From Nitrospirota bacterium (GTDB lineage Bacteria; Nitrospirota; UBA9217): DNA of 64,000 nt. Below, one piece after another: positions 9,883 through 49,185 of the stretch. Position 1 is the stretch's first letter; every line of letters begins with the position of its first letter. The stretch lies in contig CAVWHO010000019.1 in assembly GCA_963754875.1 (NCBI GenBank), positions 64,001-128,000 on the forward strand, written 5' to 3'. The translations under genes and the position numbers were made by a program. The notes beneath the pieces were generated by a model. The model saw only the letters and a list, made by a program, of their open reading frames with translations, had not been told where the DNA came from and ran no database searches.

Positions 9883-9900
9883 ATCTTGGAAAGGCGTTTT

Positions 9901-10022
9901 TCGCGCAAAGCCGCAAAGAACGCAAAGGAAATCAGACAATACAAAGCTTAAATCAAAAAAATGCTGATTGGCTGTATTCTAAATTCTCAAACCCATTTGA
10001 ATTTCTTTGCGGCTTTGCGCGA
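9901..10022. repeat. Palindromic element: perfect 20 bp inverted repeat with CGCAAAG units around an AT-rich core
   Basis: TCGCGCAAAGCCGCAAAGAA (9901-9920) and its exact reverse complement (10003-10022). Confidence 0.8.
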
Positions 10023-10054
10023 GACGGTTTTTTTAAGATAAGGATTTTATCAAT

Positions 10055-10774
10055 ATGGAAAAAATGACAAGTCCGTACAAATGGGGAATGGTGATCGACC
10101 TCGACCGCTGCACCGGCTGCGGCGCCTGCGTGGTTGCCTGTCAGGCGGAAAACAACGTGGCCATTTGCGAGAAAAAGGAGATCGCCGAAGGCCGCAACAT
10201 GCATTGGCTCAGGATCGAGCGATTCTGGGTGGGCGAGTACCCTGACGTGCAGGTGCGCTTCCTGCCTGTGCTCTGCCAACACTGCCACGACGCTCCTTGC
10301 GAGCCGGTCTGTCCGGTCTTTGCCAGCTACCACAACCCCGACGGCCTGAACGGCCAAGTCTACAACCGCTGTGTCGGCACCCGTTACTGCGGCAACAACT
10401 GCCCCTATGCTGTGCGTGTTTTCAACTTTCACGACCACGAGCACGCCTGGCCGCCGCCGCTCGACAACCAGCTCTCCCCGGACATCACCGTGCGTCCCCG
10501 CGGGGTGATGGAAAAGTGTTCCTTCTGCATCCAGCGGATTCGCAGGGCAAAGGAAGGCGCCAAGGCTGAGGGACGGCTGATCCGCGACGGAGAGGTGCAG
10601 CCTGCCTGCGCCCAGACCTGCCCCGCGGATGCCCTGGTCTTCGGCAACATGGCCGACCCGCAGAGCCGCGTTGCAAGGCTTTCGCGCAGCCCACGCAGTT
10701 TCCGGCTCCTGGAGCATCTGGGCACGCATCCATCGATCAACTATCTCAAGGGGGGAGGACGCGAACATGTCTGA
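10055..10774 (+). CDS. 4Fe-4S dicluster subunit (ActB2/QrcC/NrfC-like)
   Basis: WGMVIDLDRCTGCGACVVAC, CQHC..APCEPVCP, YNRCVGTRYCGNNCPY, RGVMEKCSFC. Confidence 0.9.
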   Translation: MEKMTSPYKWGMVIDLDRCTGCGACVVACQAENNVAICEKKEIAEGRNMHWLRIERFWVGEYPDVQVRFLPVLCQHCHDAPCEPVCPVFASYHNPDGLNGQVYNRCVGTRYCGNNCPYAVRVFNFHDHEHAWPPPLDNQLSPDITVRPRGVMEKCSFCIQRIRRAKEGAKAEGRLIRDGEVQPACAQTCPADALVFGNMADPQSRVARLSRSPRSFRLLEHLGTHPSINYLKGGGREHV

Positions 10775-12133
10775 GCATACACTCGCGGCAAAAAGCGCCG
10801 GACAGTTGAACGACGAGATGCTTTCGTCGATGCGGCCGCCGACCTGGCGGTGGTACGGGCTCGCGTTCTTTCTCGGTGTCGTGGTCGCCTGGGGGCTCGC
10901 CGCCTTCACTTACCAGGTGATGACTGACTTGAGCGTAACCGGCCTGGACCGGCCGGTCATGTGGGGAATCTATATCGCCAACTTCGTGTTCTGGGTCGGC
11001 CTTTCCCATTCCGGCACCATGGTCTCAGCCATCCTGCGCCTCTCCCAGGCCAACTGGCGCAGGCCGATCCTTCGCGCTGCCGAGGCGATGACGGTTTTCA
11101 GCATCACCGTAGCCGGTCTTTTCCCGGTCATTCACCTGGGCCGAAACTGGGTCGTCTACTATTTCATGCCCTACCCCAATCAGCGGGGACTATGGCCGAA
11201 TTTCCGGTCTCCGCTTTTATGGGACGCCACGGCCATCACGACCTATATCATCGGCAGCAGCCTCTTTCTCTACCTGGGAATGCTCCCCGATCTTGCCGTT
11301 GTCCGCGACCGGTCTACGGGCTGGCGAAAAAAAATTTATGCCGTCCTCGCCATGGGGTGGCGGGGAACGGCCCGCGAGTGGGTGGTGTTCCGCCAGGCCT
11401 CGACGCTCATGGCGGCACTTATCATCCCGGTGGCCGTCTCGGTGCATTCGATCGTTGCCTGGGATTTCGCCGTTACGGTTATCCCGGGCTGGCACAGCAC
11501 CATTTTCCCCCCTACTTCGTGATCGGCGCAATCACCTCCGGCGTGGCCGCGGTCATCACGCTCATGATCATCATCCGTCGCGTCTTCCACCTGGAGGACT
11601 ATCTCACCCCGCTTCACTTCGACAATATGGGGAAACTCTTGCTCGTCATCTGCCTGCTCTGGTCTTACGCCTATTTCGTCGAGGTCCAGACGACCTGGTA
11701 CGCCCATGAGCCGATCGAATGGGAGGTCTTCAGCTTCATGTCGGGCAAGTACACGCCGCTGCTTATCCTCATGCTTATCGGCAACTCGGTGCTACCGGTC
11801 GCAGGCCTCTGTTTCAAAAAAATCAGGCGTTCCATCAGGGCGATGCTCGTCATCACCGTTTTCGTCAACGTGGGCATGTTCATCGAGCGCTACCTCATCA
11901 TTGTGCCGTCGCTCTCTCACAAGAACATGCCCTTTATCTGGGGCAGCTACTCGCCCTCGTGGGTGGAACTCTCCGTTACCGCGGCTGCATTTGCCGGGTT
12001 TACGCTCATGTATACGCTCTTTGCAAAATTCTTCCCCATGGTGGCGGTGACCGATGTGCGGGAACTTGGGGTACGCCATACCGATGTCAGACTCGGCCGG
12101 GCAAAGGTGCATTCGATTTCGGAAGAGGAGTAA
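10767..12133 (+). CDS. actC: NrfD/PsrC family quinol-binding membrane subunit ActC; one-base frameshift at C-run 11507-11512
   Basis: WGIYIANFVFWVG, AEAMT, NFRSPLLWD and VSVHSIV..DFA in one frame. WHSTIFPP|YFVIGAI continues in a second frame after a C6 run that is one C short. Confidence 0.85.
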
Positions 12134-12201
12134 AACGATTATGGATTGCACCCTGCACTCGCGCTACGCACTCGTAAGCGCGGGTGTAAACGGAATGCGG
12201 A

Positions 12202-12314
12202 TTTTTTGGACCGAGGCCACCGTGCCAGCATCCAGCGATAATGAGTGCTATGCCGCGAATGCAGGGTGTTGCCGTAAGAGGTAACGCCGACGCGGTCGGC
12301 TTGGTCCATAAAAA
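12202..12314. repeat. MITE/REP-like element, copy 2 (inverted relative to 7562-7668), with a degenerate core hairpin at 12147-12188
   Basis: Shares ATGAGTGCTATGCCGCGAATGCAGGGTGTTGCCGTAA exactly with the reverse complement of copy 1, plus TTTTGGACC / GGTCCA ends. Confidence 0.8.
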
Positions 12315-12325
12315 GGAGTAGTTGG

Positions 12326-12835
12326 ATGGAGACTCTGGGGATTTTTAAGAATGTTGAGACAGCAACCAGGGCAGTGGACGGCCTGATCAAGGCGGGATTT
12401 TCCGAGGAAATTATCACCTCGCTGACGTCTGCGCCCTATCCCGACGGTGTGCTGGTGAAGACCGTCCAGCGCACCTGGTTCCGCTGGTTGTCCGTGGGCG
12501 GCGGAATTTTCGGCGCCTGTGCGGGTTTTCTTTTGGCTGCCGGCACTGCTTATATGTATCCGGTGCAGACAGGAGACAAGCCGATCATCGCCTACTACCC
12601 GACCGGTATCATCACCTATGAGCTCACTATGCTTTTTGCCATTCTCGGGGCCATTGTTGGGATGTTCGTAGAAATGAAGCTGCCGCCGAGAAAAGGGCGG
12701 CCCTACGATCCCGCCATCGCCGAGGGGTACATCGGCATCAGTGTGTCCGTCCCTGCAGGTGACCGCAGAAACCGGGCGGAGTCCATCATGAAGGAAGCCG
12801 GCGCCCTTCGCACAACAGCAGAGGAAACTCTATGA
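12326..12835 (+). CDS. actD: ACIII subunit ActD (DUF3341)
   Basis: Two TM helices, GDKP and ITYELTMLFA motif; downstream of actC. Confidence 0.8.
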   Translation: METLGIFKNVETATRAVDGLIKAGFSEEIITSLTSAPYPDGVLVKTVQRTWFRWLSVGGGIFGACAGFLLAAGTAYMYPVQTGDKPIIAYYPTGIITYELTMLFAILGAIVGMFVEMKLPPRKGRPYDPAIAEGYIGISVSVPAGDRRNRAESIMKEAGALRTTAEETL

Positions 12836-13290
12836 AGAAATCTTTTTCTTTACTGATTATTCTGGCAGCGGCACCTTTACTGATGGCTGCGATCTGGATG
12901 GACGATCAGCAAACCTACAAACCGTACAAAGCGCCGGTCCTTTCCCCGCCTGTTGGTTCTGTGCCCGTATCGGGCAAGGAGCTCGTTTCGCCGGACTCAG
13001 AGCTGCGAAATCCCATCGCCCCCACGCAGGAATCCGTGGCCCGGGGCAAGTCACTTTTTGAAATCAACTGTCAAATATGCCACGGTCAGACCTCGGCGGA
13101 ACGCGGTCCGGTCGGAAAAAAACTCGTTCCGCCGCCTCCCGGCCTCGACCATGACATGGTGAAGGGCTTGAGCGACTCGACTATTTTCAAGGCAATAACC
13201 TTCGGATTCGGACGCATGCCCATTTTCAAGGACAAACTCCTGCCGGAAGAGCGGTGGAGTCTGGTCAACTTCCTGCGTACTCGCAAATGA
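12832..13290 (+). CDS. actE: Monoheme cytochrome c, ActE-like
   Basis: Signal peptide, WMDDQ..YKPY, NPIAPT..SVARG, CQICHG, GRMP. Confidence 0.8.
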   Translation: MKKSFSLLIILAAAPLLMAAIWMDDQQTYKPYKAPVLSPPVGSVPVSGKELVSPDSELRNPIAPTQESVARGKSLFEINCQICHGQTSAERGPVGKKLVPPPPGLDHDMVKGLSDSTIFKAITFGFGRMPIFKDKLLPEERWSLVNFLRTRK

Positions 13291-34695: not shown

Positions 34696-34796
34696 GGACA
34701 GAATTGCACATTTCCCGATTTTAAATCGTCGAATAACAACGAAGTCCATTGCGCATTTTCAGCCGACAATCGAACATCTCTCATCTAAATCAAAAA

Positions 34797-35456
34797 ATGA
34801 TCGAGACTTTTCGCAAGATAAAAAAAGATTTTCATGCCGCGCTCTCCATGGATCCTGCTGCAACGAGCAAGATCGAGGTCGCCCTTACCTATGCGGGTTT
34901 CCACGCCCTGTTGTTCTACCGTTTGGCGCATTGGCTGCGGAAAAAACGACTGCCCTTTATTCCGCGGGCGCTTTCGCAGTTTGCACGGTTCCTCACCGGC
35001 ATAGAAATCCATCCGGGAGCGATTATCGGCTCAGGTCTGTTTATCGACCATGGCATGGGTGTGGTGATTGGAGAGACCACGGAAATCGGGGACAACGTCA
35101 CGCTCTTCCAGGGCATCACACTGGGAGGGACCGGCAAGCAGCGCGGGAAGCGCCATCCCACATTAGGCAGCCATGTCGTCGTTGGTGCCGGCGCGAAGGT
35201 GCTTGGTCCCATTAAAGTCGGTGACTATGTAAAAATCGGTGCGAACTCGGTAGTGCTCCAGGACGTACCGGACCACTCGACCGTGGTCGGCATACCGGGA
35301 CGGATCGTGCGGATCAAAGACGAGCGTGTGCCGGATGAAGCACTCTTGGATCACATTAATATCCCTGACCCCATAGCCGACCGGCTTATTGATCTGCAGC
35401 TTCAGATTGATTTACTGAAGAAGGAAATGGAGAGCATCAAAAAGTCGAAGGGCTGA
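34797..35456 (+). CDS. cysE: Serine O-acetyltransferase
   Basis: [32 protein letters not shown]. Confidence 0.95.
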
Positions 35457-36699: not shown

Positions 36700-37878
36700 A
36701 TGAGCAATGATGGCAAGACCCCGATGCTTGACGACCTGGAAAAAGGCGTGTGGCCAAGTTTTGTAAAAGAAATTAAAAAGGCCGCCGTGAAAAGTAATAC
36801 GGCGAAAGATCTGCTCAATATTTTGGAGCGATCATACCGAGATAAAGTGACCCACTGGAAGCATGGCGGTATCGTGGGTGTTCTCGGTTACGGCGGGGGC
36901 GTTATCGGCCGTTACTGTGATCTTCCGGCTGAATACCCGGGTGTGGCTCATTTCCACACGGTCCGTATCAACCAGCCGTCCGGATTCTACTACACATCCA
37001 GCGCGCTTCGTGATCTCATGGATATCTGGGACAAATATGGAAGCGGTCTGACCAACTTCCACGGATCCACGGGAGACATGGTGCTCCTCGGAACGCAGAC
37101 TGATAAACTCGAGCCGATTTTCGCTGAAACAACGGCAAAGGGTTGGGATCTCGGCGGTTCCGGTTCCTGCCTCCGTACCCCAAGTTGCTGTGTCGGCATG
37201 TCCCGTTGCGAATATGCTACCATTGATGCAATGGATATATGCAACACCCTTACCCATAAGTTCCAGGATGAACTCCATCGTCCCGCATTCCCCTACAAGT
37301 TCAAGATCAAGGTTTCCGGCTGCGCAAACGATTGCACCGCTGCCGTTGCGCGCGCTGACATGTCTATCATCGGCACCTGGCGCGACAATATCCGGATCGA
37401 TCAGGCCGAGGTAAAGAACTGCGCCAAGAACATGGACATCAAGACCGAAGTGACCGACATGTGCCCGACCAAGTGCATGAACTGGGACGGCAGCACGCTC
37501 AAGATCAACGACAAGGACTGTAACCGCTGCATGCACTGCATCAACCGCATGCCCAAAGCCCTGCGCCCCGGCAAAGAGAAAGGCGCAACCATCATGCTCG
37601 GCGGTAAAGCACCGATCGTGACCGGCGCACTCATGAGCTGGGTTCTTGTTCCTTTCATGAAGCTTGAAGCCCCCTATGATAACATCGAAGCCCTCATCCG
37701 CAAACTTTGGGAATGGTGGGATGATCACGGAAAGAACCGCGAGCGTATCGGTGAGTTGGTAGATCGTATGGGCATGAGATCCATGCTTGAAGCAACCGGC
37801 CTGCCGCCCGTGCCGCAGATGGTGAAAGCCCCGAGGTCGAACCCGTACGTATTCTGGTCCGCGGACGACGTGAAATAA
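36700..37878 (+). CDS. dsrA: Dissimilatory sulfite reductase alpha subunit
   Basis: WPSFV, HWKHGGIVGV.GYGGGVIGRY, NFHGSTGD, CX5C (CVGMSRC) and CX3C (CANDC), CNRCMHC. Confidence 0.98.
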   Translation: MSNDGKTPMLDDLEKGVWPSFVKEIKKAAVKSNTAKDLLNILERSYRDKVTHWKHGGIVGVLGYGGGVIGRYCDLPAEYPGVAHFHTVRINQPSGFYYTSSALRDLMDIWDKYGSGLTNFHGSTGDMVLLGTQTDKLEPIFAETTAKGWDLGGSGSCLRTPSCCVGMSRCEYATIDAMDICNTLTHKFQDELHRPAFPYKFKIKVSGCANDCTAAVARADMSIIGTWRDNIRIDQAEVKNCAKNMDIKTEVTDMCPTKCMNWDGSTLKINDKDCNRCMHCINRMPKALRPGKEKGATIMLGGKAPIVTGALMSWVLVPFMKLEAPYDNIEALIRKLWEWWDDHGKNRERIGELVDRMGMRSMLEATGLPPVPQMVKAPRSNPYVFWSADDVK

Positions 37879-37898
37879 TCTAAGGAGGATAACTTAAA

Positions 37899-38972
37899 AT
37901 GGCCGACAAACCAAAGAGAATAACCGATATTGGAGCCCCTCACTTTAGCAAATTCTTGCCTCCCGTGATCGCGAAAAACTACGGGAAGTGGAAGTATCAT
38001 GAAGTTATCGATAAAGGCACCATGAAACACGTATCTGAGACAGGCGAAGAACTTTATACCGTACGTATTGCAACACCCCGTCTCGTCAGCAGCGATTATA
38101 TCCGCGAGATGTGCAATTACGCTGATAAATTCAGCGGAGGCCACCTTCGCTGGACAACCCGTCACAACATCGAGTTTTTCCCAGCAAAGGACCAGGTAGA
38201 GTCGCTCAAGTCAGCGCTCAAGAAGGAAGGACACCTCGTTGGCGGTATCGGCTACGGCATCAGCAACGTGGTGCATACCCAGGGCTGGATCCACTGCCAC
38301 ACCCCGGCAACGGACGCTTCCGGCGTGGTAAAGGCGGTCATGGACGAGCTGCATGAATACTTTACGACGAAGACCCTTCCGGCCCGCGTCAGGATCGCCT
38401 TGGCATGCTGCCTGAATATGTGCGGCGCCGTTCATTGCTCCGATATCGCGATCCTCGGCATTCACCGTAAGCCCCCGAAGGTTAACGAGGCGACCATTGC
38501 GAACCAGTGCGAGATCCCGACGACTATCGCATCCTGCCCCACGGGCGCTATCAGCCCGAACCCGGCAGCGAAGTCGGTCAAGATCAAAGAAGAACGCTGC
38601 ATGTATTGCGGTAACTGCTACACGATGTGCCCGTCATTGCCATTGGCTGATGCGACGGGCGATGGTATCTCCATCTATGTAGGTGGTAAGGTTTCGAATG
38701 CACGTGGTCCGGCGCGTATGTCCAGGCTTGCCATACCGTTCCTGCCGAACAATCCGCCGCGCTGGCCTGAAGTCGTAAAGGCCGTGAAGCACCTGGTGGA
38801 AGTCTACGCCAAGGATGCACAGAAGCATGAGCGCATGGGTGAGTGGATTGAGCGCATTGGTTGGGAGCGGTTCTTTAAACTGACCGGCCTCGCGTTTACG
38901 TATCAGCACATTGACGATTTCACCTTTGCTCGCGAGACGTTCAGAATGACCCCAACCTTCAAGTGGGAATAA
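37899..38972 (+). CDS. dsrB: Dissimilatory sulfite reductase beta subunit
   Basis: [53 protein letters not shown]. Confidence 0.98.
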
Positions 38973-39061
38973 TGGTCTGAAAGGTGTATACTATCAATCC
39001 GGCCCTGGATTTACTCCGGGGCCGGATTAGCTGTTGTTACAACTTATTGGAGGGGACGATT

Positions 39062-39298
39062 ATGGACGCTGTAGAACTGCAGAAAAAAGTGTATGAGCTG
39101 GTGCAAAAGAGCCAGGGTAAGAAAAAGCTGAAGCCCAAGGACATCAGCAATGCCATGGAGGCGGAAGGCGCGACCCAGGCAGAGGTTAAAGCCGCGCTCC
39201 GTGAGCTGATAGACGGCGGCAAGCTGGTATATTCCTACTTCGGCGGCACTGCTGTCGAAATCCCGCACACAGAGGGTTCGGCTAACCCGCAGTCATAA
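39062..39298 (+). CDS. dsrD: DsrD winged-helix protein
   Basis: 78 aa directly after dsrB; KKKLKPKD...VKAALRELI..GKLVYSYFGG; GGAGG RBS. Confidence 0.85.
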   Translation: MDAVELQKKVYELVQKSQGKKKLKPKDISNAMEAEGATQAEVKAALRELIDGGKLVYSYFGGTAVEIPHTEGSANPQS

Positions 39299-40695
39299 TG
39301 CAGACCGTACCGAGGCTGGTGATTTCAGCCGCGAGAGGCGGGCTCGGCAAGACGACCCTGTCCCTCGGCATTGTCACTGCCTGGAGAAGGCGGGGGCGGC
39401 AGGTTGCGGTTTTTAAAAAAGGACCGGATTTCATTGATGCGGGCTGGCTCGGGGTTGCAGCAGGAAGACCCTGCTATAACCTCGATATGTTCATGATGGA
39501 GCAGGATCGCATCGAGCGTTCTTTCACTGACCATGCAGCTGGCGCAGACGCGGCAATCATTGAAGGAAACCGCGGGCTGTACGACGGCGTAGACGAGTCC
39601 GGAATTTACAGCACAGCCCGATTAGCAAAACTTCTGAAGACGCCCGTTATCCTGATCGTCGACGGGACGAAGGCATCCGCGACGGTCGCGGCTGTCGTTC
39701 TCGGATTGCAGCACTATGACGCAGACGTTCTCATCGCCGGGATTATCCTGAACAACGTATCGTCTTTGCGCCATGAAAACGTTATCCGGAAGGCAATTGC
39801 AGCGAGCAGCAGCATCCCCGTAGTCGGCGTCGTACCGAAGCAACGACGCGGCGAGTTTCCTGAGCGGCATATGGGGTTGACGCCGTTCCACGAACACCCG
39901 GAAGTAGAGCAGGCGATAGACGCTTCAGCATCCATTGCAGAAAACCATCTCGATCTTGAAGCACTGTGGAATATCGCGTGTACTGCTCAGGTGATCGAGA
40001 ACAGGGGAAACACGAAAATCCAGCCGCCCGTGCGAAAAGAGGACCGGGTCGTTGTGGGAGTCATCAGGGACCGGGCATTTCAGTTCTACTATCCCGATAA
40101 TCTGGAGGAGCTCGAACGACACGGGGCGCTGATCAGAGAAATAAATGCATTACATGACAAGAGACTGCCCGACGATATCGACGCCCTCTATATCGGCGGG
40201 GGGTTTCCTGAGACACAGGCTGCGGAGTTGGCGGCGAACCGGGGTTTTTGTGCATCGCTCAAAGCCGCAGCAGAAAACGGAATGCCCATTTACGCGGAGT
40301 GCGGTGGTCTGATTTACCTGGGGAGGAGCCTCACCGTCGGCGGTGAACGATATGCCATGACGGCGGTGCTGCCGCTTGATTTCGTTCTTGAGAAAAAACC
40401 CCAGGCGCACGGGTATACGATACTGGAGACCAACGACAAGAGTCCGTTCCTTGACAAGGGAGTCACTATTCGCGGCCATGAGTTTCATTATTCTCGGGTC
40501 GTCAATCTTGACGGTTTGCCTCCCATGGCGTATCATGTTTCACGGGGCAGCGGCATTGACGGGAAAACCGACGGTATTGTGTATAAAAATGTACTGGCAT
40601 CATATACTCATCTTCACTCCCTCGGCACACCCGAATGGGCGCCGGCTATGATTCGAAGCGCCCTTGGGCATCGAACAGTGAAGCGGCCCGCATAG
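39298..40695 (+). CDS. dsrN: DsrN siroheme amidase (cobyrinate a,c-diamide synthase family)
   Basis: GG.GKTT, KKGPDFID, EGNRGLYDG, GGGFPE, YAECGG, GHEFHYS; follows dsrD. Confidence 0.9.
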   Translation: MQTVPRLVISAARGGLGKTTLSLGIVTAWRRRGRQVAVFKKGPDFIDAGWLGVAAGRPCYNLDMFMMEQDRIERSFTDHAAGADAAIIEGNRGLYDGVDESGIYSTARLAKLLKTPVILIVDGTKASATVAAVVLGLQHYDADVLIAGIILNNVSSLRHENVIRKAIAASSSIPVVGVVPKQRRGEFPERHMGLTPFHEHPEVEQAIDASASIAENHLDLEALWNIACTAQVIENRGNTKIQPPVRKEDRVVVGVIRDRAFQFYYPDNLEELERHGALIREINALHDKRLPDDIDALYIGGGFPETQAAELAANRGFCASLKAAAENGMPIYAECGGLIYLGRSLTVGGERYAMTAVLPLDFVLEKKPQAHGYTILETNDKSPFLDKGVTIRGHEFHYSRVVNLDGLPPMAYHVSRGSGIDGKTDGIVYKNVLASYTHLHSLGTPEWAPAMIRSALGHRTVKRPA

Positions 40696-40708
40696 AAGGC
40701 AGGTATTA

Positions 40709-41074
40709 TTGAGGTCCGGACCAAGGGAAGGTAGGGAGCCGGTTTGCCCTTTTTGCAAGGCCAGCCTGGCTCGCCCGGCAACGATGACCGTTAATAGGAT
40801 GGAACGGGTAAGCGGAGGAACGTGCGGCACCTGCGGAGCGATGTACATTGTCGATCCCACGAGCAAGAACGTGGGAGAGGTGATGATGCAAGCTCTCGGC
40901 ATTGCGGCGGAAAAACTGTCGAAGGACATGTCCGACCTCGTTGCGGGAGAAGATTACGAAGATGCATTGCTCAGCTATGATTGGCGGACGCATCGATCGC
41001 CCGGCATCAGCAAAGGCTTTATGGATGGGTATGGACGGTTATATATTATCAAGGTGAAACAGAAGCCGGCCTGA
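40709..41074 (+). CDS. Hypothetical protein with CPFC...CGTC motif
   Basis: Fills the dsrN-dsrC gap; TTG start; two CxxC pairs. Confidence 0.7.
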   Translation: MRSGPREGREPVCPFCKASLARPATMTVNRMERVSGGTCGTCGAMYIVDPTSKNVGEVMMQALGIAAEKLSKDMSDLVAGEDYEDALLSYDWRTHRSPGISKGFMDGYGRLYIIKVKQKPA

Positions 41075-41179
41075 GGTGCGGTGTTATAGTTTGAATGGGT
41101 TATCGTGTAGTTTCAGAGATGTACTATTAGATGAGGGACCGATGAGGCGTCCGACTATTTTCATGAAAGGGGAACAACA

Positions 41180-41515
41180 ATGGGAACGGTTACAGTAAAA
41201 GGCAAGACTATTGAAGTGGATGAAGACGGATTTTTGGCGAATCTGGACGAATGGAGCATGGACATTGCCAAATATTTTGCGGAGGTCGAAGGAATCGATA
41301 TGACGGATCAGCATTGGGAAGTCGTCAATTTCCTCCGCGACTACTACAAGCAGTATCAGATTGCGCCGATGATCAAGATCCTCGTAAAGGAAATCGGCAA
41401 GAAGCTGGGACCCGAAAAAGGCAATACTAAGTATCTGTATGAGCTCTATCCGGGTGGCCCGGCAAAGCAGGCATGTAAAATCGCCGGTCTTCCGAAGCCT
41501 ACGGGCTGCGTGTAA
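41180..41515 (+). CDS. dsrC: Sulfur carrier DsrC
   Basis: DEDGFL, HWEVV.FLR.YY, C-terminal ACKIAGLPKPTGCV with both conserved Cys (CX10C). Confidence 0.96.
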   Translation: MGTVTVKGKTIEVDEDGFLANLDEWSMDIAKYFAEVEGIDMTDQHWEVVNFLRDYYKQYQIAPMIKILVKEIGKKLGPEKGNTKYLYELYPGGPAKQACKIAGLPKPTGCV

Positions 41516-41700
41516 GATCGTTTCTCCTTGTTCTATCTCCTGCCGGCAGCCTTACCTGTGGAAGGCCGACCGGACAGAGGGATCAAAGATTCCGGTCGTC
41601 CCTGTCTAGCGCATGCACGAGAGCTGCCGCAGTTTCCGTGCGACTGTGTTTTCGATACGGAAGCGTTGCATGTAGGCGCTGAAAGAGAAAGGTATCAATC

Positions 41701-41886
41701 ATGTACATGGTAACCGTTGACAAGAACAAGTGCGATGGAGACGGCACCTGCGTAAATGTGTGTCCGCAGTCCGTGTTCAAAGTTGAAAGCGGCAAAGCCG
41801 AGCCGGTGAATATGTCGGAATGCATTAACTGTCTGACCTGCGTGGAAAGCTGCCCGCAGCAGGCTATCACGGTCTCCGAGATCTAA
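41701..41886 (+). CDS. Dicluster ferredoxin, copy 1
   Basis: CDGDGTC...CP and CINCLTC...CP. Confidence 0.92.
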   Translation: MYMVTVDKNKCDGDGTCVNVCPQSVFKVESGKAEPVNMSECINCLTCVESCPQQAITVSEI

Positions 41887-41910
41887 CGCAGTGAAAGACC
41901 AGTACACCAA

Positions 41911-41946
41911 AAGGGGATAGTTGAACGACTAGTCCCCTGTTTTTTT
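41911..41946 (+). terminator. Rho-independent terminator after ferredoxin 1
   Basis: AGGGGA-N13-AGTCCCCT hairpin followed by a T-run. Confidence 0.65.
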
Positions 41947-41975
41947 ATCATGATATCGCCCAGGGAGGTGAGAAG

Positions 41976-42275
41976 ATGAAATTAGCATTATTCTTAAGCG
42001 ACTGGAGAAGAACGGAAGACAGTTTTGAAAGAATTAAAGCCGACAAGATGGGAGTAATCCTCGTAGGCAATGGTGTCTATCATGCCGTTGTCAAAGAGAA
42101 CGGCAAGGATTCACCTGTGCTTTCCAAGGCAGGGGCGAGCTTTTACGTGCTGTCCGATGATCTGACCACGAGGGGATATACATCTGCAAACGTCAACTCA
42201 AAAGTGAAGGTTGTCAGCTACGGCGACATCGTCGATCTTATAATGAATGATTACGAGAAAACGGCCTGGATATAG
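41976..42275 (+). CDS. dsrH: DsrH/TusB-like protein
   Basis: ILVGNGVY, YVLSDDLTTRG, VVSYGDIVDL; 99 aa. Confidence 0.75.
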   Translation: MKLALFLSDWRRTEDSFERIKADKMGVILVGNGVYHAVVKENGKDSPVLSKAGASFYVLSDDLTTRGYTSANVNSKVKVVSYGDIVDLIMNDYEKTAWI

Positions 42276-42359
42276 GACGATAAACAGAGGTGAGCGAGGG
42301 GCAATGCCGGATAGGATATGCGCTCCCTCATCCATCATACAAAGGTTAAGGAGGATAGA

Positions 42360-42719
42360 ATGGGAGAATTAACGATAGGAGTATTCTCTTCCCTGGTCGG
42401 TTCGATGTCGCTTGATTTTTCGTTCAAGCTTGCCGATGCCGCAATCGCCAAGGGTCATAAGGTGAATATGTGGCTGTCCGGCAATGCCGTCATGATGGCC
42501 AAGAAGGGACAGAAGCAGTTCAAGGATTACTCGCATAATGAAAAGCTTATGAAGGAACTGATGGGCAAGGGCATGGAAATCACCGTCTGCGAGGCTTGTG
42601 CAGAAGCCCGGGGGTACCATAAGGAAGATGTTCCGGAAGGCATGAAGCGTGCCAGCATGGACTGGTACCTGGCCAAGACCGTCAAGACCGACAAGCTGCT
42701 TCATATCGGAGGTGAGTAA
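42360..42719 (+). CDS. dsrE: DsrE/TusD-like sulfurtransferase
   Basis: LADAAIAKGHKVNMWLSGNAV, VCEACAEARG; AGGAGG RBS. Confidence 0.75.
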   Translation: MGELTIGVFSSLVGSMSLDFSFKLADAAIAKGHKVNMWLSGNAVMMAKKGQKQFKDYSHNEKLMKELMGKGMEITVCEACAEARGYHKEDVPEGMKRASMDWYLAKTVKTDKLLHIGGE

Positions 42720-43132
42720 TGGGAGCCGTAAATTTACTATTCGTTGTGCAGAGACCGCCGTACAAGAGCGAGAACCCCCGTCTTGCGCTCACCCATGCCA
42801 TCGCGAGCCAGACGGCAGAGATCTACATGGACGACGGCGATTCCGTTGTCCCGATCATCGTGTTCGTCGGCGACGGCGTCTTGAACGTGGTGAAGGACCA
42901 GCAGGCCATGAAGGTCTACGGAGTGACGAGCACGGAAAGCCATATCAAGAGCTGCCTGATGATCGACCTCCCGGTCTGGGTCTGCAAGGAAGACATGGCA
43001 CGGCTCGGGCTCAAAGAAGAAAACATGATCACCAATGCCGAGGAGTTGGGCGCCGATATGAAAACAAAGTTCGTCTCCTTCGCCGAGATCCAGAAAGAAA
43101 TGGATTCAGTGAAACATTTGCTGTTCTTTTAA
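42719..43132 (+). CDS. dsrF: DsrF/TusC-like protein
   Basis: LLFVVQRPPY, FVGDGVL...KDQ, VWVCKEDM..LG; start overlaps the dsrE stop. Confidence 0.7.
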   Translation: MGAVNLLFVVQRPPYKSENPRLALTHAIASQTAEIYMDDGDSVVPIIVFVGDGVLNVVKDQQAMKVYGVTSTESHIKSCLMIDLPVWVCKEDMARLGLKEENMITNAEELGADMKTKFVSFAEIQKEMDSVKHLLFF

Positions 43133-43175
43133 CGACGCAGCAAACGCTGCAGGCGTGCTTATGACTCACGGGGAA

Positions 43176-43691
43176 ATGAAACTCAACAACTATTTGCTGG
43201 GGAAAAAAACCGCCATTCTGAAAAAATGGTTCGATGCCGTTGTGGAGACGTATCCCAACGAAACGTCAGCCTTTTTAAAGAAGCAGAAGGCCCAGTTCAC
43301 CAACCCGGTCGGCTATACGTTCGCGGAAGGACTCGAACATCTTTTCGACGCGCTGCTCCAGGGGATGCTTCCCGACACCGTCTCCCGGTTTCTCGACAGC
43401 ATTGTCAGGCTGCGGGCGATCCAGGAGTTCGAGCCGTCTGAAGCGGTGATGTTCATCTTCCGGCTCAAGAAGGTGGTCCGGCAGGAGCTTGGCAACGAAC
43501 TTCTGCAACAACAGGAAATCATCGAGGGACTGGCGACCTTCGAGTCCTCCGTTGACGACCTGGCCCTGTACGCTTTCGATCTTTATGTAAAATGCCGAGA
43601 GAAGATTTTTGAACTCAAGGCAAATGAAGCGAAAAATATGACCTTCAGGCTTTTGCAGCAGGCGCGCCTCATCGTCGACAACCAGGATTGA
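43176..43691 (+). CDS. dsrT: DsrT (RsbRD N-terminal domain protein)
   Basis: ILKKWF...ETYP, FTNPVG, RLRAIQEF.PSEAV.F, AFD.Y..CREK; precedes dsrM. Confidence 0.9.
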   Translation: MKLNNYLLGKKTAILKKWFDAVVETYPNETSAFLKKQKAQFTNPVGYTFAEGLEHLFDALLQGMLPDTVSRFLDSIVRLRAIQEFEPSEAVMFIFRLKKVVRQELGNELLQQQEIIEGLATFESSVDDLALYAFDLYVKCREKIFELKANEAKNMTFRLLQQARLIVDNQD

Positions 43692-43747
43692 GACTTAAGG
43701 AGCGAGATGGCTGAGGCTGCTAACCTAAATTGAAAAGAGGTAACGAA

Positions 43748-44740
43748 ATGAAAGCCATAATTTCTTTCATTGCAGTGCTTATCCTCGCAGCGATAGCTTA
43801 TGTGGGGGTCGAGATGCTGAACGCCCGATACGTTTTCGGTGTCGTTATCCCCTACCTGGCTGTTGCGACCTTTATTATCTTCATGATCGTCCGTATCCTA
43901 AAATGGGGCAGTTCGCCGGTTCCGTTCCGTATTCCCACAACATGCGGTCAGCAGAAGTCATTCCCCTGGATAAAGCACAGCAAACTGGAAAATCCCTCCG
44001 GCGCTCTCGGCGTGATGGGCAGGATGGCCCTCGAAGTGCTGTTCTTCCGTTCGCTCTTCAGGAACCTGAAAACGCAGCTGCGGGATGATTCTCAGTTGAC
44101 CTACGGTGAGGCCAAATGGCTCTGGGCGGCAGGGTTGGCCTTCCATTGGTCGTTTCTCATTATCCTGATCCGACATCTCAGGTTCTTTACTCAGCAGGTC
44201 CCGGCAGCAGTGCAGCTTGTAGAATTGCTTGACAGCTTCCTGCAGATCGGTGTGCCGCTCCTGTATATAACCGATGCGGTGCTTCTTGGTGCGGTAACCT
44301 ATCTCTTCATCAGAAGGATCGGGCTTCCTCAGGTCCGTTATATATCCCTCATCAACGATTACTTTCCGCTCTTTCTGATTTTCGGCATAGCACTCTCCGG
44401 TGCGCTCATGCGGTACTTCTTTAAAACCGACATCGTCAGCGTCAAGATGCTCACGATGAGCCTGGTCAGCTTCAATCCGCAAATTCCCGAGGGGATCGGC
44501 GTTGTTTTTTACATCCACCTGTTTCTCATCTGTACGTTGTTCGCCTATTTCCCCTTCAGCAAGCTTGTCCACATGGGCGGCGTCTTCATGAGCCCTACCC
44601 GCGTCCTGGCGAACAACAGCCGCGTAAAGCGGCATATCAATCCCTGGAATTATCCGGTGCATGTCCATACCTATGAAGAATATGAAAATGACTTCAGGGC
44701 GAAGATGAAAGATGCCGGCCTGCCGGTAGAAAAGGAGTAA
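43748..44740 (+). CDS. dsrM: DsrM cytochrome b
   Basis: PVPFRIPTTCGQ, EVLFFRSLFRN, FHWSF...RHLR, YFPFSKL.H. Confidence 0.95.
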   Translation: MKAIISFIAVLILAAIAYVGVEMLNARYVFGVVIPYLAVATFIIFMIVRILKWGSSPVPFRIPTTCGQQKSFPWIKHSKLENPSGALGVMGRMALEVLFFRSLFRNLKTQLRDDSQLTYGEAKWLWAAGLAFHWSFLIILIRHLRFFTQQVPAAVQLVELLDSFLQIGVPLLYITDAVLLGAVTYLFIRRIGLPQVRYISLINDYFPLFLIFGIALSGALMRYFFKTDIVSVKMLTMSLVSFNPQIPEGIGVVFYIHLFLICTLFAYFPFSKLVHMGGVFMSPTRVLANNSRVKRHINPWNYPVHVHTYEEYENDFRAKMKDAGLPVEKE

Positions 44741-44742
44741 TC

Positions 44743-46362
44743 ATGGCGAAACTTCCGAAACCAGAAGAATTAGCAAAAATTGATTACACGCTGCCGAAAA
44801 CGGGCTGGATGGATACGCCCGTTGTTTTTAAAGAGGGTATGTTCTGCCATGGTTCGAAGCCGAAGAGCCTCGAGCTCGTCAGCTTTCCGAACCCCCGAGA
44901 GTGGAGACCCGCAGACGCGGACTGGAAATTGCCTGAAAACTGGAAGGAGATTCTCCTCAAGGGGATCGCAGAGCGGCTCGAAAAGTACCGGTCCTTCCGG
45001 CTGTTCATGGACATCTGCGTGCGCTGCGGCGCCTGTGCGGACAAATGCCACTTCTTTATCGGTACCGGCGACCCGAAGAACATGCCGGTGCTCAGGGCCG
45101 AGCTGATACGCTCAGTTTATCGCAAAGAGTTCACCCTGGCAGGCAAGATCTTCGGTAAGATGGCAGGCGCGCGCGAGCTTACCATCGATGTACTGAAGGA
45201 GTGGTGGTACTATTTCTTTCAATGTACCGAATGCCGGCGCTGCTCGGTCTTCTGCCCCTACGGCATCGACCAGGCCGAGATCACGATCATCGGCCGAGAG
45301 CTTCTCAATCTGCTCGGCCTGAACATTGAGTGGATCGCCGGTCCGGTCTCGAACTGCTATATGAAGGGTAACCACCTGGGTCTCGAACCCCATACGATCG
45401 TCGGCAACCTCGAGTACATGCTCGACGATATCGAGACCGTCACCGGCAAGAGGATCAAGCCGACCTTCAACCGAAAGGGCGCAGAGATCCTGTTCGTAAC
45501 GCCGTCGGGCGATTTGTTTGCGGATCCCGGTACGTACACGTGCATGGGATACCTTATGCTGTTCGAGGAACTGGGGCTCGACTATACCTGGAGCACCTAT
45601 GCTTCTGAAGGAGGAAACTTCGGTTTCTTCACCTCGAACGAGATGGGAAAGCGGCTCAATTCCAAGATCTATGCAGAGGCCAAGCGTCTCGGCGTAAAAT
45701 GGATCCTCGGCGGAGAGTGCGGCCACATGTGGCGGGTGCTCTCCCAGTACATGGATACCTGGAACGGTCCGGCGGATTTCCTGGAAGTCCCGAAATCGCC
45801 GATTACCGGTACAGTGTTCGAACAAGCGAAATCGATGAAGATGGTCCATGTTGCGGAGTTCACCGCTGATCTGATCAGGAACAATAAGCTCAAGCTCGAT
45901 CCGAAGCGGAACGACCACCTCAAGGTCACGTGGCATGATTCCTGTAACGTTGCGCGCGGCATGGGCATGCTGGAAGAGCCGCGCTATGTGCTCAAGAGCG
46001 TGGTGAACAACTTCTATGAAATGCCCGAAGACACGATACGCGAAAAGACCTTCTGTTGCGGCAGCGGCACGGGCTTAAATGCCTCGGAAGACATGGACCT
46101 CCGCATGAAAGGCGGGTTCCCCCGTGCGAACGCGGTCAAGTTCGTTGCCGAGCACCACGGCGTGAACATGCTTGCCAACGTCTGTGCCATCGACCGGGCA
46201 ACACTCAAACCCTTGATGGATTACTGGGTCCCCAGTGTGAACGTATGCGGCCTCCACGAACTCGTGGCGAACGCCCTGGTCATGACAGGGGAGAAGGAGC
46301 GGACGACCGATCTCCGCGGCGAACCCCTCCCCTCTGCCCAAGCGAAGGAGGAAAAAGCCTAA
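44743..46362 (+). CDS. dsrK: DsrK Fe-S catalytic subunit
   Basis: CVRCGACADKC, CTECRRCSVFCP, GECGHMWR, HDSCN, FCCG. Confidence 0.96.
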   Translation: MAKLPKPEELAKIDYTLPKTGWMDTPVVFKEGMFCHGSKPKSLELVSFPNPREWRPADADWKLPENWKEILLKGIAERLEKYRSFRLFMDICVRCGACADKCHFFIGTGDPKNMPVLRAELIRSVYRKEFTLAGKIFGKMAGARELTIDVLKEWWYYFFQCTECRRCSVFCPYGIDQAEITIIGRELLNLLGLNIEWIAGPVSNCYMKGNHLGLEPHTIVGNLEYMLDDIETVTGKRIKPTFNRKGAEILFVTPSGDLFADPGTYTCMGYLMLFEELGLDYTWSTYASEGGNFGFFTSNEMGKRLNSKIYAEAKRLGVKWILGGECGHMWRVLSQYMDTWNGPADFLEVPKSPITGTVFEQAKSMKMVHVAEFTADLIRNNKLKLDPKRNDHLKVTWHDSCNVARGMGMLEEPRYVLKSVVNNFYEMPEDTIREKTFCCGSGTGLNASEDMDLRMKGGFPRANAVKFVAEHHGVNMLANVCAIDRATLKPLMDYWVPSVNVCGLHELVANALVMTGEKERTTDLRGEPLPSAQAKEEKA

Positions 46363-46790
46363 TGAAACTCTATGACGGCGGTAAAATAATCGTCGGGCTT
46401 CTGGTGTTCATCGGGATAGCGACGTTCCCCTTTTACTACAACATCGGCAAGGTGAATGCGAAGCCGGATCCGAAAACGGACACGCCTGCGATCCAGGAGT
46501 GGGAAAAACTGAATGGAAAAAAAGAGTGCATTGAGTCCAAGGAGTACATGCGGGCCGAGCACATGCAGCTGCTGAACAACTGGCGGGACGCGGTCGTACG
46601 CGGGACCTACCGTCAGTACACGAGCATGACGAGCGGCAAGCACTTCAACATGAGCCTGCAGAACGGCTGCATGAAATGCCATTCGAACAAGAAACAATTC
46701 TGCGACCAGTGCCACAATTACATGGCGGTCAAGCCCTACTGCTGGGACTGCCATATTCAGCCGACGGAGAAGGAGGAGAATAAATCATGA
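46362..46790 (+). CDS. dsrJ: DsrJ triheme cytochrome c
   Basis: MR.EHMQLL..WRD.VVR, CMKCH, CDQCH, CWDCH. Confidence 0.93.
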   Translation: MKLYDGGKIIVGLLVFIGIATFPFYYNIGKVNAKPDPKTDTPAIQEWEKLNGKKECIESKEYMRAEHMQLLNNWRDAVVRGTYRQYTSMTSGKHFNMSLQNGCMKCHSNKKQFCDQCHNYMAVKPYCWDCHIQPTEKEENKS

Positions 46791-47617
46791 GCATGGACAG
46801 GAGACAATTTCTGAAAATTGCCGGCATCTCCTCCATTCTGGGGTTCGGCGCATCGGTGGCATCGGCCACGCATACGGTATGGCAGAAGGGCCTGGAGCCC
46901 CCTCAGGTGGAGCCGAACAAGGAAGGCCTGATTGCAAAGCGGTGGGCCATGGTCGTCGACATGAGCAAGTTTAAGTCCGAGGAAGACATCAACAAGGTCA
47001 CCAGCGCCTGTCACTTGACACATAACGTGCCCGACTTCCGGAACCCTGACGGGACGGTAGACAAGAAACTCGAAATCAAGTGGATTTGGGAAGAGCCCTA
47101 TGAACGGACCTTCCCCGGCTCAGAAAATAAGTTTATGAACGAGCACATCAAGGACATGCCCTTTATCGTGCTCTGCAATCATTGCGACAACCCTCCCTGC
47201 GTTCGGGTTTGCCCCACCAAGGCCACGTTCAAGCTTGAAAACGGCGTCACGATGCAGGACATGCACCGCTGTATCGGGTGCCGGTTCTGTATGGCAGCCT
47301 GTCCCTACGGGTCGCGGAGCTTCAACTGGGTAGACCCAAGGCGGGCACTCAAGCCGGAACTGGAAAACAAAGAGTACCCGACGAGGACCAAGGGCGTTGT
47401 GGAAAAGTGCACCTTCTGCACAGAGCGACTCCAAGTGGGAAAGATTCCTGCTTGCGTCGAAGCCGCTCCCAAGGATGCAATGTTCTTTGGGGACATCGAA
47501 GACCCCAATTCCGAGGTCAGGAAGATCGTGACGTCGCAGCTCACCATCAGGCGCAAGCCCGAACTGGGCACCGGCCCGGCGGTCTATTATCTCATAGGAG
47601 GGAGCGACCATGCTTGA
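46787..47617 (+). CDS. dsrO: DsrO periplasmic Fe-S protein
   Basis: Tat motif MDRRQFLK, CNHCDNPPCVRVCP, CIGCRFCMAACP, VEKCTFC. Confidence 0.93.
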   Translation: MSMDRRQFLKIAGISSILGFGASVASATHTVWQKGLEPPQVEPNKEGLIAKRWAMVVDMSKFKSEEDINKVTSACHLTHNVPDFRNPDGTVDKKLEIKWIWEEPYERTFPGSENKFMNEHIKDMPFIVLCNHCDNPPCVRVCPTKATFKLENGVTMQDMHRCIGCRFCMAACPYGSRSFNWVDPRRALKPELENKEYPTRTKGVVEKCTFCTERLQVGKIPACVEAAPKDAMFFGDIEDPNSEVRKIVTSQLTIRRKPELGTGPAVYYLIGGSDHA

Positions 47618-48782
47618 GAAAGCATTTGAGGGAGGGAAGAAATACTGGGCGTGGCTGATCTTTCTCGGCGCCCTGGCAGCAGTAGGCGTATATTACTATA
47701 TCCAGCAGTTTCAGTATGGGTTGGGACTTACGGGAATGCATCGGGACGTGTCGTGGGGCCTGTACATCGGCCAGTTCACGTTCCTCGTTGGAGTTGCGGC
47801 TTCGGCGGTGATGCTTGTTATACCCTACTATTTGCACGATTTCAAGAAATTCGGCAAGATCGTCATCCTCGGTGAATTTCTTGCAATCTCGGCAGTGACC
47901 ATGTGCATCCTCTTCATTTTTGTGGACATGGGTCAGCCCATGAGGATCATGAATGTCATCCTGCACCCGACGCCGAATTCGGTCATGTTCTGGGATTCCG
48001 TTGTTCTATCCGGCTATCTTGCCATCAACGTACTGGTCGGCTGGGTCACCTTGAGCGCCGACCGGAAAGGCGTTCCGCCGCCAAAGTGGATCCGGTTTTT
48101 CATCTACCTCTCGATTCCCTGGGCAGTGAGTATCCATACGGTGACGGCGTTCTTGTACTCAGGACTTCCGGCGCGTCATTTCTGGCTCAGCGCCGTGATG
48201 GCGGCCCGGTTCCTCGCATCTGCATTTGCTGCAGGTCCGGCCCTGCTCATCATCCTTGCCCTGATCGTGAGAAAAATATCGAAATTCGATCCGGGAAAGG
48301 AGGCCATTCAGGCAATTGGGCAGATCGTGGCCTATGCCATGTTTGCAAACGTGTTTCTCCTCGGGCTCGAATTCTTCACCGCGTTCTACAGCGGTATCCC
48401 GGGCCATGCGGCCTCCTTCATTTATCTCTACCAGGGGCTTGAAGGCCATACTGAGCTCGTACCGCTCATGTGGACGTCTACGATACTTGCAGTTGTTGCG
48501 CTTCTCCTGCTGGTGTTTCCGGCTGCGAGAAAGAAGGAAGGCCTGCTCTCTTTAGCCTGTGTGTCGCTTTTTATTTCGCTCTGGATCGACAAGGGGTTCG
48601 GTCTGATCATCGGCGGTTTCGTGCCGAATCCCTTTGAAGAGGTGCATCCCTACTGGCCGACCATGCCGGAGTCTTTGATCACCCTCGGCGTCTGGGCCAT
48701 TGGGTTCCTGGTCCTTTCCATGCTGTATAAGATTGCAATCTCTGTCAGAGAAAGAACAGCGGGAATAGAAATAGACCATTAA
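47610..48782 (+). CDS. dsrP: DsrP NrfD-family membrane subunit
   Basis: TGM.RDVSWGLYI.QFTFLVGVAASA, SIHTVTAF, ARFLASAF. Confidence 0.94.
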   Translation: MLEKAFEGGKKYWAWLIFLGALAAVGVYYYIQQFQYGLGLTGMHRDVSWGLYIGQFTFLVGVAASAVMLVIPYYLHDFKKFGKIVILGEFLAISAVTMCILFIFVDMGQPMRIMNVILHPTPNSVMFWDSVVLSGYLAINVLVGWVTLSADRKGVPPPKWIRFFIYLSIPWAVSIHTVTAFLYSGLPARHFWLSAVMAARFLASAFAAGPALLIILALIVRKISKFDPGKEAIQAIGQIVAYAMFANVFLLGLEFFTAFYSGIPGHAASFIYLYQGLEGHTELVPLMWTSTILAVVALLLLVFPAARKKEGLLSLACVSLFISLWIDKGFGLIIGGFVPNPFEEVHPYWPTMPESLITLGVWAIGFLVLSMLYKIAISVRERTAGIEIDH

Positions 48783-48804
48783 GAACAAATACTTGCAGAT
48801 TTGT

Positions 48805-48840
48805 AAGGGCCCTCCTGATAATAAGGAAGGGCCCTTTTTT
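48805..48840 (+). terminator. Rho-independent terminator after dsrP
   Basis: AAGGGCCCT...AGGGCCCTT followed by a T-run. Confidence 0.75.
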
Positions 48841-48932
48841 AATCTCAATTTCTTACTTGATTTTATCGGCTCTGCCGGGTAATATATGACGTTTTTGGAA
48901 TCATACTTCAACTGAAGGAGGAACTAGGCACC

Positions 48933-49118
48933 ATGATGATGGTAACGATCGACCAAGCAAAGTGCGACGGAGACGGCACCTGCGCGAACGTCTGTCCGCA
49001 AGCGGTGTTCAAGATCGAGGGTGGCAAAGCCGATCCGGTGAACATGTCCGAATGCATCAACTGCCTGACCTGCGTGGACAGCTGTCCCCAGCAGGCAATA
49101 ACTGTCACCGAGATGTAA
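48933..49118 (+). CDS. Dicluster ferredoxin, copy 2
   Basis: 49 of 61 residues identical to copy 1 by manual alignment; AGGAGG RBS. Confidence 0.92.
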   Translation: MMMVTIDQAKCDGDGTCANVCPQAVFKIEGGKADPVNMSECINCLTCVDSCPQQAITVTEM

Positions 49119-49150
49119 ACAGCAAAGTCAAACTGGATTTACTCATGCAA

Positions 49151-49185
49151 AAGGGGACCGGCTATTCGCCAGTCCCCTTATTTTT
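49151..49185 (+). terminator. Terminator after ferredoxin 2
   Basis: AGGGGA-N13-AGTCCCCT followed by a T-rich tail; same geometry as 41911-41946. Confidence 0.7.

Follow-up and report, generated by a model that had tools for sequence, protein, structure and literature searches.

What does a DsrEFH-like trio do inside a dsr operon of reductive type? The question is raised by a 64,000-nucleotide stretch of a Nitrospirota genome (assembly GCA_963754875.1, contig CAVWHO010000019.1, positions 64,001 to 128,000; the window), in which 17 genes, all on the + strand at 36700-49118, are arranged as dsrA-B-D-N-hyp-C-fdx-H-E-F-T-M-K-J-O-P-fdx (hyp, hypothetical; fdx, ferredoxin). The preliminary description of this DNA had given the same order, and profile matches fall in that order along the strand. 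Intergenic gaps within the cluster measure -8 to 185 bases, which would suit a single transcription unit or a small number of them. As judged by a tree and by profiles of our own, rather than by the published type II hidden Markov models (HMMs), we conclude that the embedded trio H-E-F represents a third DsrEFH clade, because it forms its own clade in the tree, its identities to other types are low, the profiles agree, and a type II cluster lies elsewhere in the same genome, on contig C7.

In a tree of the concatenated E, F and H subunits (42 rows), the window trio fell into a clade of its own with 17 members (support 100/99). Type I DsrEFH and TusBCD, the latter represented by one row on a long branch, formed a single clade (99/99), an sqr-linked trio formed a fourth (99/98), and Desulfobulbaceae-type type II references grouped with the C7 trio (100/100), apart from the window trio; long branches meet, so the tree does not resolve the relations among the four clades. 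Three type II loci from which no DsrF was recovered (L217, L218, L233) and one whose subunits came from two clusters (L183) were left out. The type I references belong to other Nitrospirota families, an order-level search for proteobacterial ones having returned 0/38. Members of the window clade share 19-28% identity with type I, 19-24% with TusBCD and 14-26% with type II. The trio proteins match the Pfam DsrH/DsrE families and miss all three type I cut-offs (TIGR03012/03010/03011; DsrE 21.3 bits against 89.25, DsrF 34.6 against 94.15, DsrH 47.6 against 49.2, in that order), which the control Nitrospirota trios L097 and L102 pass. With a separate clade and missed cut-offs, the earlier assignment of the trio to the DsrEFH of the oxidative pathway does not hold; its separation from TusBCD, which sits with type I, agrees with what had been supposed.

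The type II references were four metagenome loci fetched by a primer-derived pattern, with the arrangement tusA-E(110 aa, Cys67)-F(115)-H(57). In one of them (L236) the F and H masses (12.8 and 6.9 kDa) match Table S4 of PMC13293266, and cluster members are named Desulfobulbaceae. The type II/YTD cluster of the genome under study (C7:103376-105773, L073) reads tusA-yeeE-E(101 aa)-F(92)-H(56), and before it lie genes for a Rieske protein and cytochrome b. A profile of two type II references gave the C7 DsrE and DsrH 34.5 and 31.1 bits, against 8.8 bits and no score for the window proteins, and a profile of nine type II trios built here scored the window trio at 27.6, 3.3 and 4.6 bits. Genome G036 has two such sets: an E-F-H-yeeE cluster, laid out as in the one Nitrospirota isolate of Table S5 of PMC13293266, and, elsewhere, H-E-F-tusA next to its dsr operon. 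Window-type and type II families co-occur in 92 genomes of a 251-genome Nitrospirota sample. A first reading of the trio as type II subtype 1 was dropped once the short-DsrH cluster appeared at C7. Literature searches, whose coverage excluded most subscription papers, found no description of the trio as a family of its own, and the third clade appears undescribed in the literature searched.

The arrangement is not confined to this genome. Of 48 family loci found through DsrE, 47 are titled Nitrospirota or Nitrospir-, including GWC2_57_13, GWC2_57_9 and UBA9217; the family is likely UBA9217, which corresponds to DsrAB lineage 10 in the available text of PMC10591310. The remaining one, L065, is titled Betaproteobacteria; its operon proteins are 71-94% identical and its genome falls within this group, so that the taxon label is probably wrong. 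The window order is collinear in 47/48 family loci as far as the contigs reach. L023 shows no dsrT-P match after dsrF, and in five loci the ferredoxin between C and H went undetected. The H-E-F-T-MKJOP synteny is therefore recurrent, and the mixed gene set belongs to the family as a whole, not to this organism in particular. In other families, 41/42 fetched loci have the arrangement H-E-F-tusA; dsr genes lie inside the fetched stretch in 19 of the 42, mostly convergent with dsrP, and yeeE stands beside trio-tusA in L151; at the window locus itself no tusA or yeeE adjoins the trio.

In the phylum sample of 251 Nitrospirota genomes (DsrE matched at E<=1e-15; related genomes are not independent samples), 107 have the DsrE and 139 have dsrA: 104 carry both, 3 DsrE only, 35 dsrA only and 109 neither. 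Among the three DsrE-only genomes, G023 owes its place to a fragmented assembly, in which part of a dsrB is present. The other two, G027 (100% complete) and G157 (99%), belong to two families, gave no match to dsrA, dsrB or aprA, and retain H-E-F-tusA and dsrC-M-K (L276 and L275, respectively). When 1.84 billion representatives were searched with a profile, seven proteins matched at E<=1e-30, below which the matches dropped to generic DsrE/YchN-like proteins, and the taxon-bearing source names among the 120 homologues listed are all Nitrospirota or plain 'bacterium'. Searches of plasmids and viral contigs did not find dsrA. Relatives are present at a word share of 0.06 in two peat metatranscriptome runs of one study, and one RNA contig from relatives covers 41683-43938, from fdx through H-E-F-T and into M, at about 88% identity, which is not proof of transcription.

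Two other arrangements were met in the sample. Genus g26, of the same family as the window genome, has a different set, fdx-dsrA-B-M-K-C, on a long branch (L240 = G061, L241 = G054); dsrD, N and T were unmatched there, and neither the trio, aprA nor an orthologue of the C7 tusA is found in these genomes. This set looks like a replacement of the ancestral operon. In family f3 (L097, L098, L255, L256) a single cluster holds canonical type I dsrEFH along with dsrD, a DsrL-like gene and a DsrA that falls on the reductive side.

The subunits themselves are predicted to have the expected DsrEFH folds in the case of DsrE and DsrF. The AlphaFold model of DsrE (pLDDT 89) superposes on 2HY5_A with a TM score of 0.83 (Z 15.9, rmsd 2.5 over 115 residues) and on TusD with 0.82, and the best Foldseek match of the DsrF model (pLDDT 87) is DsrF of the same structure, 2HY5_B (TM 0.77). 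Among solved structures the best sequence match for DsrE is E. coli YchN. DsrE Cys77 aligns with DsrE-Cys78 of A. vinosum (2HY5), and the motif to which it belongs, CE[AS]C (C77xxC80), is invariant in 86/86 orthologous loci and in 120/120 of the homologues listed. In DsrH, which in the window lacks cysteine, any Cys occurs in only 8/85 orthologues. DsrC has both C-terminal cysteines in 64/64 orthologues. A complex prediction of E, F and H with DsrC (score 0.13, mark 0.32) gave no verdict and was used neither way.

The surrounding genome is that of an apparent sulfate reducer, on the strength of its sat-aprBA-qmoABC and dsrABD genes. In a DsrA tree of 29 rows (DsrA only, midpoint root, none of the references a cultured strain picked by name), a 100/99 branch set the window DsrA apart from the rDsrA of phages and from that of four Nitrospirota loci with dsrL and no dsrD, and it grouped with other Nitrospirota reductive sequences at 97/93. 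By this placement DsrA is of reductive type, as the preliminary description had assumed in putting DsrAB outside the oxidative clade. The sulfate-reduction set comprises this DsrA, a DsrC with both cysteines, DsrMKJOP and sat/aprAB/qmo, where aprA (HMM, 912 bits) lies in a sat-aprB-aprA-qmoABC run on contig C16; its neighbours we take to be sat, aprB and qmoABC from their sequence motifs and their position. Of the genes to be sought genome-wide, sat, aprAB, qmo and a type III-like sqr are present. The cluster has no dsrL, as noted before, and none was found in the rest of the 90%-complete genome: the best score to NF009410 was 378 against a cut-off of 516, the protein beside dsrD in L097 scoring 597 as a control, and the best tblastn matches of DsrL read as NfnB-like and glutamate-synthase-like proteins. 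The genome also has mnmA and a split narGH with a frameshifted narG; NrfA was not found in it. Two further DsrC-family paralogues lie at C17:138344-138661 and C20:303744-304025.

We propose that H, E and F would form a trimer in which DsrE Cys77 receives sulfane sulfur from TusA and passes it to DsrC, with DsrC Cys110 as putative acceptor, and that DsrMK(JOP) would then reduce the DsrC-bound sulfur to sulfide. Zero-valent sulfur would in this way gain a second, DsrAB-independent entry to the DsrC cycle of a sulfate reducer. The relay step by itself we consider probable; coupled to a reductive drain through DsrMK, the proposal is tentative, with the balance leaning a little against it. That the three proteins assemble, that TusA gives the sulfur and Cys110 takes it, and which way it moves are what we infer. 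In vitro, sulfur passes from type I DsrEFH to DsrC and not back (PMC3397948), and for type II a one-way transfer from TusA to DsrE-Cys67 to DsrC is reported in vitro in the accessible parts of PMC13293266. A candidate donor is encoded at C7, whose tusA is orthologous to the one placed after the trio outside the family (73% identity); orthologous tusA genes occur in 47/61 family genomes and adjoin yeeE in 19/25 loci. The proposal also draws on the invariance of Cys77, on the trio's place between dsrC-fdx and dsrT-MKJOP in the family, on its company with dsrC, on the 104/107 carriers that have dsrA, and on its not being found in the two g26 genomes. That G027 and G157 keep dsrC-M-K with no match to dsrAB or aprA suggests that the trio acts on DsrC, not on DsrAB, and that the relay may not need DsrAB; it also slightly favours reduction through DsrMK.

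Several observations weigh against this proposal. The Dsr pathway does not need the trio, since 35 dsrA genomes lack it, including 9/10 of family f15, and the case for independence from DsrAB depends on two draft genomes. Neither type I nor cable-type DsrE has the second invariant cysteine, Cys80, and the CxxC motif it forms may instead indicate a thiol-disulfide reaction. In A. vinosum, Cys20 of DsrH is required in vivo (PMC3397948); it would have no counterpart in the cysteine-free window DsrH. The biochemistry comes from other EFH types and reaches this clade by analogy. At C7, frameshifts interrupt both tusA and yeeE, which relatives have intact; like the frameshift in narG, they are likely assembly errors. 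Two other EFH-like trios of the genome could do the same job: that of C7, and one at C20:231175-233403 (L284), where E-F-H is followed by the type III-like sqr. The DsrE of this last trio has an in-frame TGA at the catalytic cysteine (UxxC) with a hairpin 16-34 bases downstream, the genome has a tRNA-Sec, and in related L284-type loci the catalytic-site codon is TGA in 6/7 and Cys in one. Judged by these features, this DsrE likely contains selenocysteine; PMC1088965 lists selenoproteins of the DsrE-like UXXC kind.

A wider form of the proposal, which we hold to be doubtful, is that the third DsrEFH type with TusA, DsrC and DsrMK would constitute a DsrAB-independent sulfur-respiration module of basal Nitrospirota, wired into the dsr operon and able to outlive the loss of dsrAB and aprA, with one genome holding three EFH complexes (dsr-embedded, YTD and selenocysteine-sqr-linked) routing sulfur in different directions.

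The alternative that survives best, which is also the reading put forward in the preliminary description, keeps the same relay and reverses what follows, DsrC-bound sulfur being oxidised by a reversed DsrAB and then by AprAB and Sat, in a nitrate-linked or S0-disproportionation branch. The type III-like sqr, sat-aprBA-qmoABC and narGH of the genome all fit such a route, which is proposed for cable bacteria in the type II model of PMC13293266 and which PMC5812927, in its passages on a related Nitrospirota genome, could not exclude. We nevertheless think it unlikely, though it retains some weight: two carriers of the trio lack dsrAB, a search of the genome, 90% complete, gave no dsrL, the C7 type II cluster is a closer candidate for the role, and reversal of a reductive DsrAB is unproven at the enzyme level.

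Rather less probable is a housekeeping role, with no new energy metabolism, in which the CxxC would reduce or strip over-sulfurated DsrC or drain its sulfur to TusA for biosynthesis. The invariant C77xxC80, shared with E. coli YchN, suits this role, and a fixed place in the operon together with 82-95% full-length DsrE identity within the family would fit a constitutive part; against it, both EFH types studied accepted no sulfur from DsrC in vitro, and many dsrA-bearing Nitrospirota lack the trio.

Independent of mechanism is the question whether the trio could be subtype 1 of the published type II, and so already catalogued, which we regard as improbable. According to the accessible text of PMC13293266, subtype 1 is 57% Nitrospirota and closest to type I, and the trio does adjoin tusA in other families and tusA-yeeE in L151. 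The references that match the protein of that paper (Cys67; 110/115/57 aa) nevertheless group with the C7 trio, the two-reference profile recognises the C7 proteins and not those of the window, and in family f6, whose dsrAB is oxidative, it is the short-DsrH family that occurs and not that of the window, an association with oxidative dsrAB being what is described for subtype 1. A TusBCD-like relay for tRNA 2-thiouridine synthesis, placed in the dsr operon by chance, is very unlikely as the trio's role, even with many homologues labelled TusD by JGI, the TusD-like fold and an mnmA in the genome, since TusBCD sits in the tree with type I, no DsrE-family protein was matched in the closed genome G061 although mnmA is there, and the trio's distribution follows dsr genes.

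The features of the operon are collected in the table. NCBIfam cut-offs were passed by dsrA, dsrB, dsrN/CobB, dsrC and dsrM, K, J, O and P. The dsrD call has weak profile support and is based mainly on its place after dsrB; 11/12 aligned orthologues match Pfam DsrD at E<=1, and a PDB search with the window protein returned no DsrD chain among its matches. A scan for promoters and terminators stayed at chance level (16 terminator-like sites against 15.2 expected). The hypothetical protein with two CxxC motifs keeps its place between dsrN and dsrC across Nitrospirota relatives, and its look-alikes in the Atlas are unnamed clusters. The two ferredoxins are identical at 49/61 residues. A cysE gene (serine acetyltransferase; window 34749-35456) lies upstream of dsrA, as it does in many related loci. 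Farther away, at window 7684-13290, a molybdopterin-family gene resembling QrcB/ActB scores 304 bits, which is below cut-off; with the small genes that come after it, it suggests a Qrc or alternative complex III operon.

Table. Features of the dsr operon (window positions). The starts of dsrD, dsrE, dsrT, dsrM and dsrJ were chosen by ribosome-binding sites.
Feature	Position	Strand	Remarks
dsrA	36700..37878	+	392 aa, reductive bacterial type; TIGR02064 554 bits, cut-off 393
dsrB	37899..38972	+	357 aa; TIGR02066 489 bits, cut-off 342
G+C-rich hairpin between dsrB and dsrD	38996..39028	+	14 bp; weak candidate
dsrD (divergent)	39062..39298	+	78 aa; Pfam DsrD 19.5 bits, cut-off 24.2; position 3' of dsrB
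dsrN (siroheme amidase, CobB family)	39298..40695	+	NF002204 452 bits
conserved hypothetical protein	40709..41074	+	121 aa, two CxxC motifs; no Pfam/NCBIfam match
dsrC	41180..41515	+	TIGR03342; both C-terminal cysteines (C99, C110)
ferredoxin	41701..41886	+	61 aa, 2x[4Fe-4S]; Pfam Fer4
DsrH-like subunit	41976..42275	+	99 aa, no cysteine; Pfam DsrH; family profile against 2HY5_C 3e-7
DsrE-like subunit	42360..42719	+	119 aa; C77-E-A-C80, C77 aligned to A. vinosum Cys78
DsrF-like subunit	42719..43132	+	137 aa; one-base overlap with dsrE stop
dsrT	43176..43691	+	Pfam RsbRD_N 72 bits; directly before dsrM
dsrM	43748..44740	+	NF038037 534 bits
dsrK	44743..46362	+	NF045796 732 bits
dsrJ	46362..46790	+	NF038038 174 bits
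dsrO	46787..47617	+	NF045797 286 bits
dsrP	47610..48782	+	NF045798 482 bits
second ferredoxin	48933..49118	+	61 aa, paralogue of the first; Pfam Fer4

DsrEFH serves as a genomic marker of sulfur oxidation, and type II is newly proposed as a second one. The third clade, which escapes the standard cut-offs, occurs in 107/251 sampled Nitrospirota genomes and stands beside type II in 92 of them, and neither presence nor absence calls of DsrEFH are therefore safe in these soil and groundwater lineages. The trio also offers a small, soluble system for asking how, and in which direction, zero-valent sulfur enters a DsrC cycle with reductive DsrAB; if the relay operates as proposed, apparent sulfate reducers would gain an extra sulfur input.

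Compared with known systems, the trio is like the type I DsrEFH of A. vinosum (PDB 2HY5; PMC3397948) in having three subunits of similar length encoded near dsrC, the predicted DsrE and DsrF folds and a cysteine at the Cys78 position. It differs in its 19-28% identity, its scores below the TIGR cut-offs, the order H-E-F, the extra Cys80, the lack of DsrH Cys20, and its company of reductive DsrAB with DsrD and no DsrL found. With type II/YTD (the available text of PMC13293266, PMC13047784 and PMC12998232), the former YTD cluster now recorded in 985 genomes (PMC13293266), it shares an EFH-like trio with one conserved catalytic cysteine, a link to TusA and co-occurrence with reductive dsrAB in Nitrospirota, whereas identity is 14-26%, the clade is separate, the order is H-E-F inside the dsr operon, and DsrH (99 against about 57 aa) and DsrF (137 against 90-115 aa) are longer. 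E. coli TusBCD (PDB 2D1P) and YchN (PDB 1JX7) resemble it in fold and active-site cysteine position, YchN also in its CxxC; the trio has 19-24% identity to TusBCD and travels with dsr genes, and YchN is a single gene.

Mixed sets of this general kind exist in print, as the preliminary description had guessed: the consulted sections of PMC6018805 and PMC10591310 report dsrD together with dsrEFH in other phyla, and PMC13293266 (ISME J 2026) has type II/YTD together with reductive DsrAB. Most Thermodesulfovibrionia with reductive dsrAB are described in part of PMC11033732 as having dsrFH and no dsrE, probably, we would suggest, a partial detection of this trio; the passages of PMC5812927 on related Nitrospirota make no mention of dsrE or tusA. 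A reductive DsrAB joined to an EFH-like relay is as a concept already published; the literature covered also included PMC9751629, PMC10504309 and PMC10203281. The mixed dsrD and type I dsrEFH operons (PMC6018805; PMC10591310, both in part) share with the window a reductive DsrAB, DsrD and an EFH complex, and differ in that their EFH is canonical type I, often accompanied by DsrL, in the layout of family f3 (L097, L255, L256) and not that of the window.

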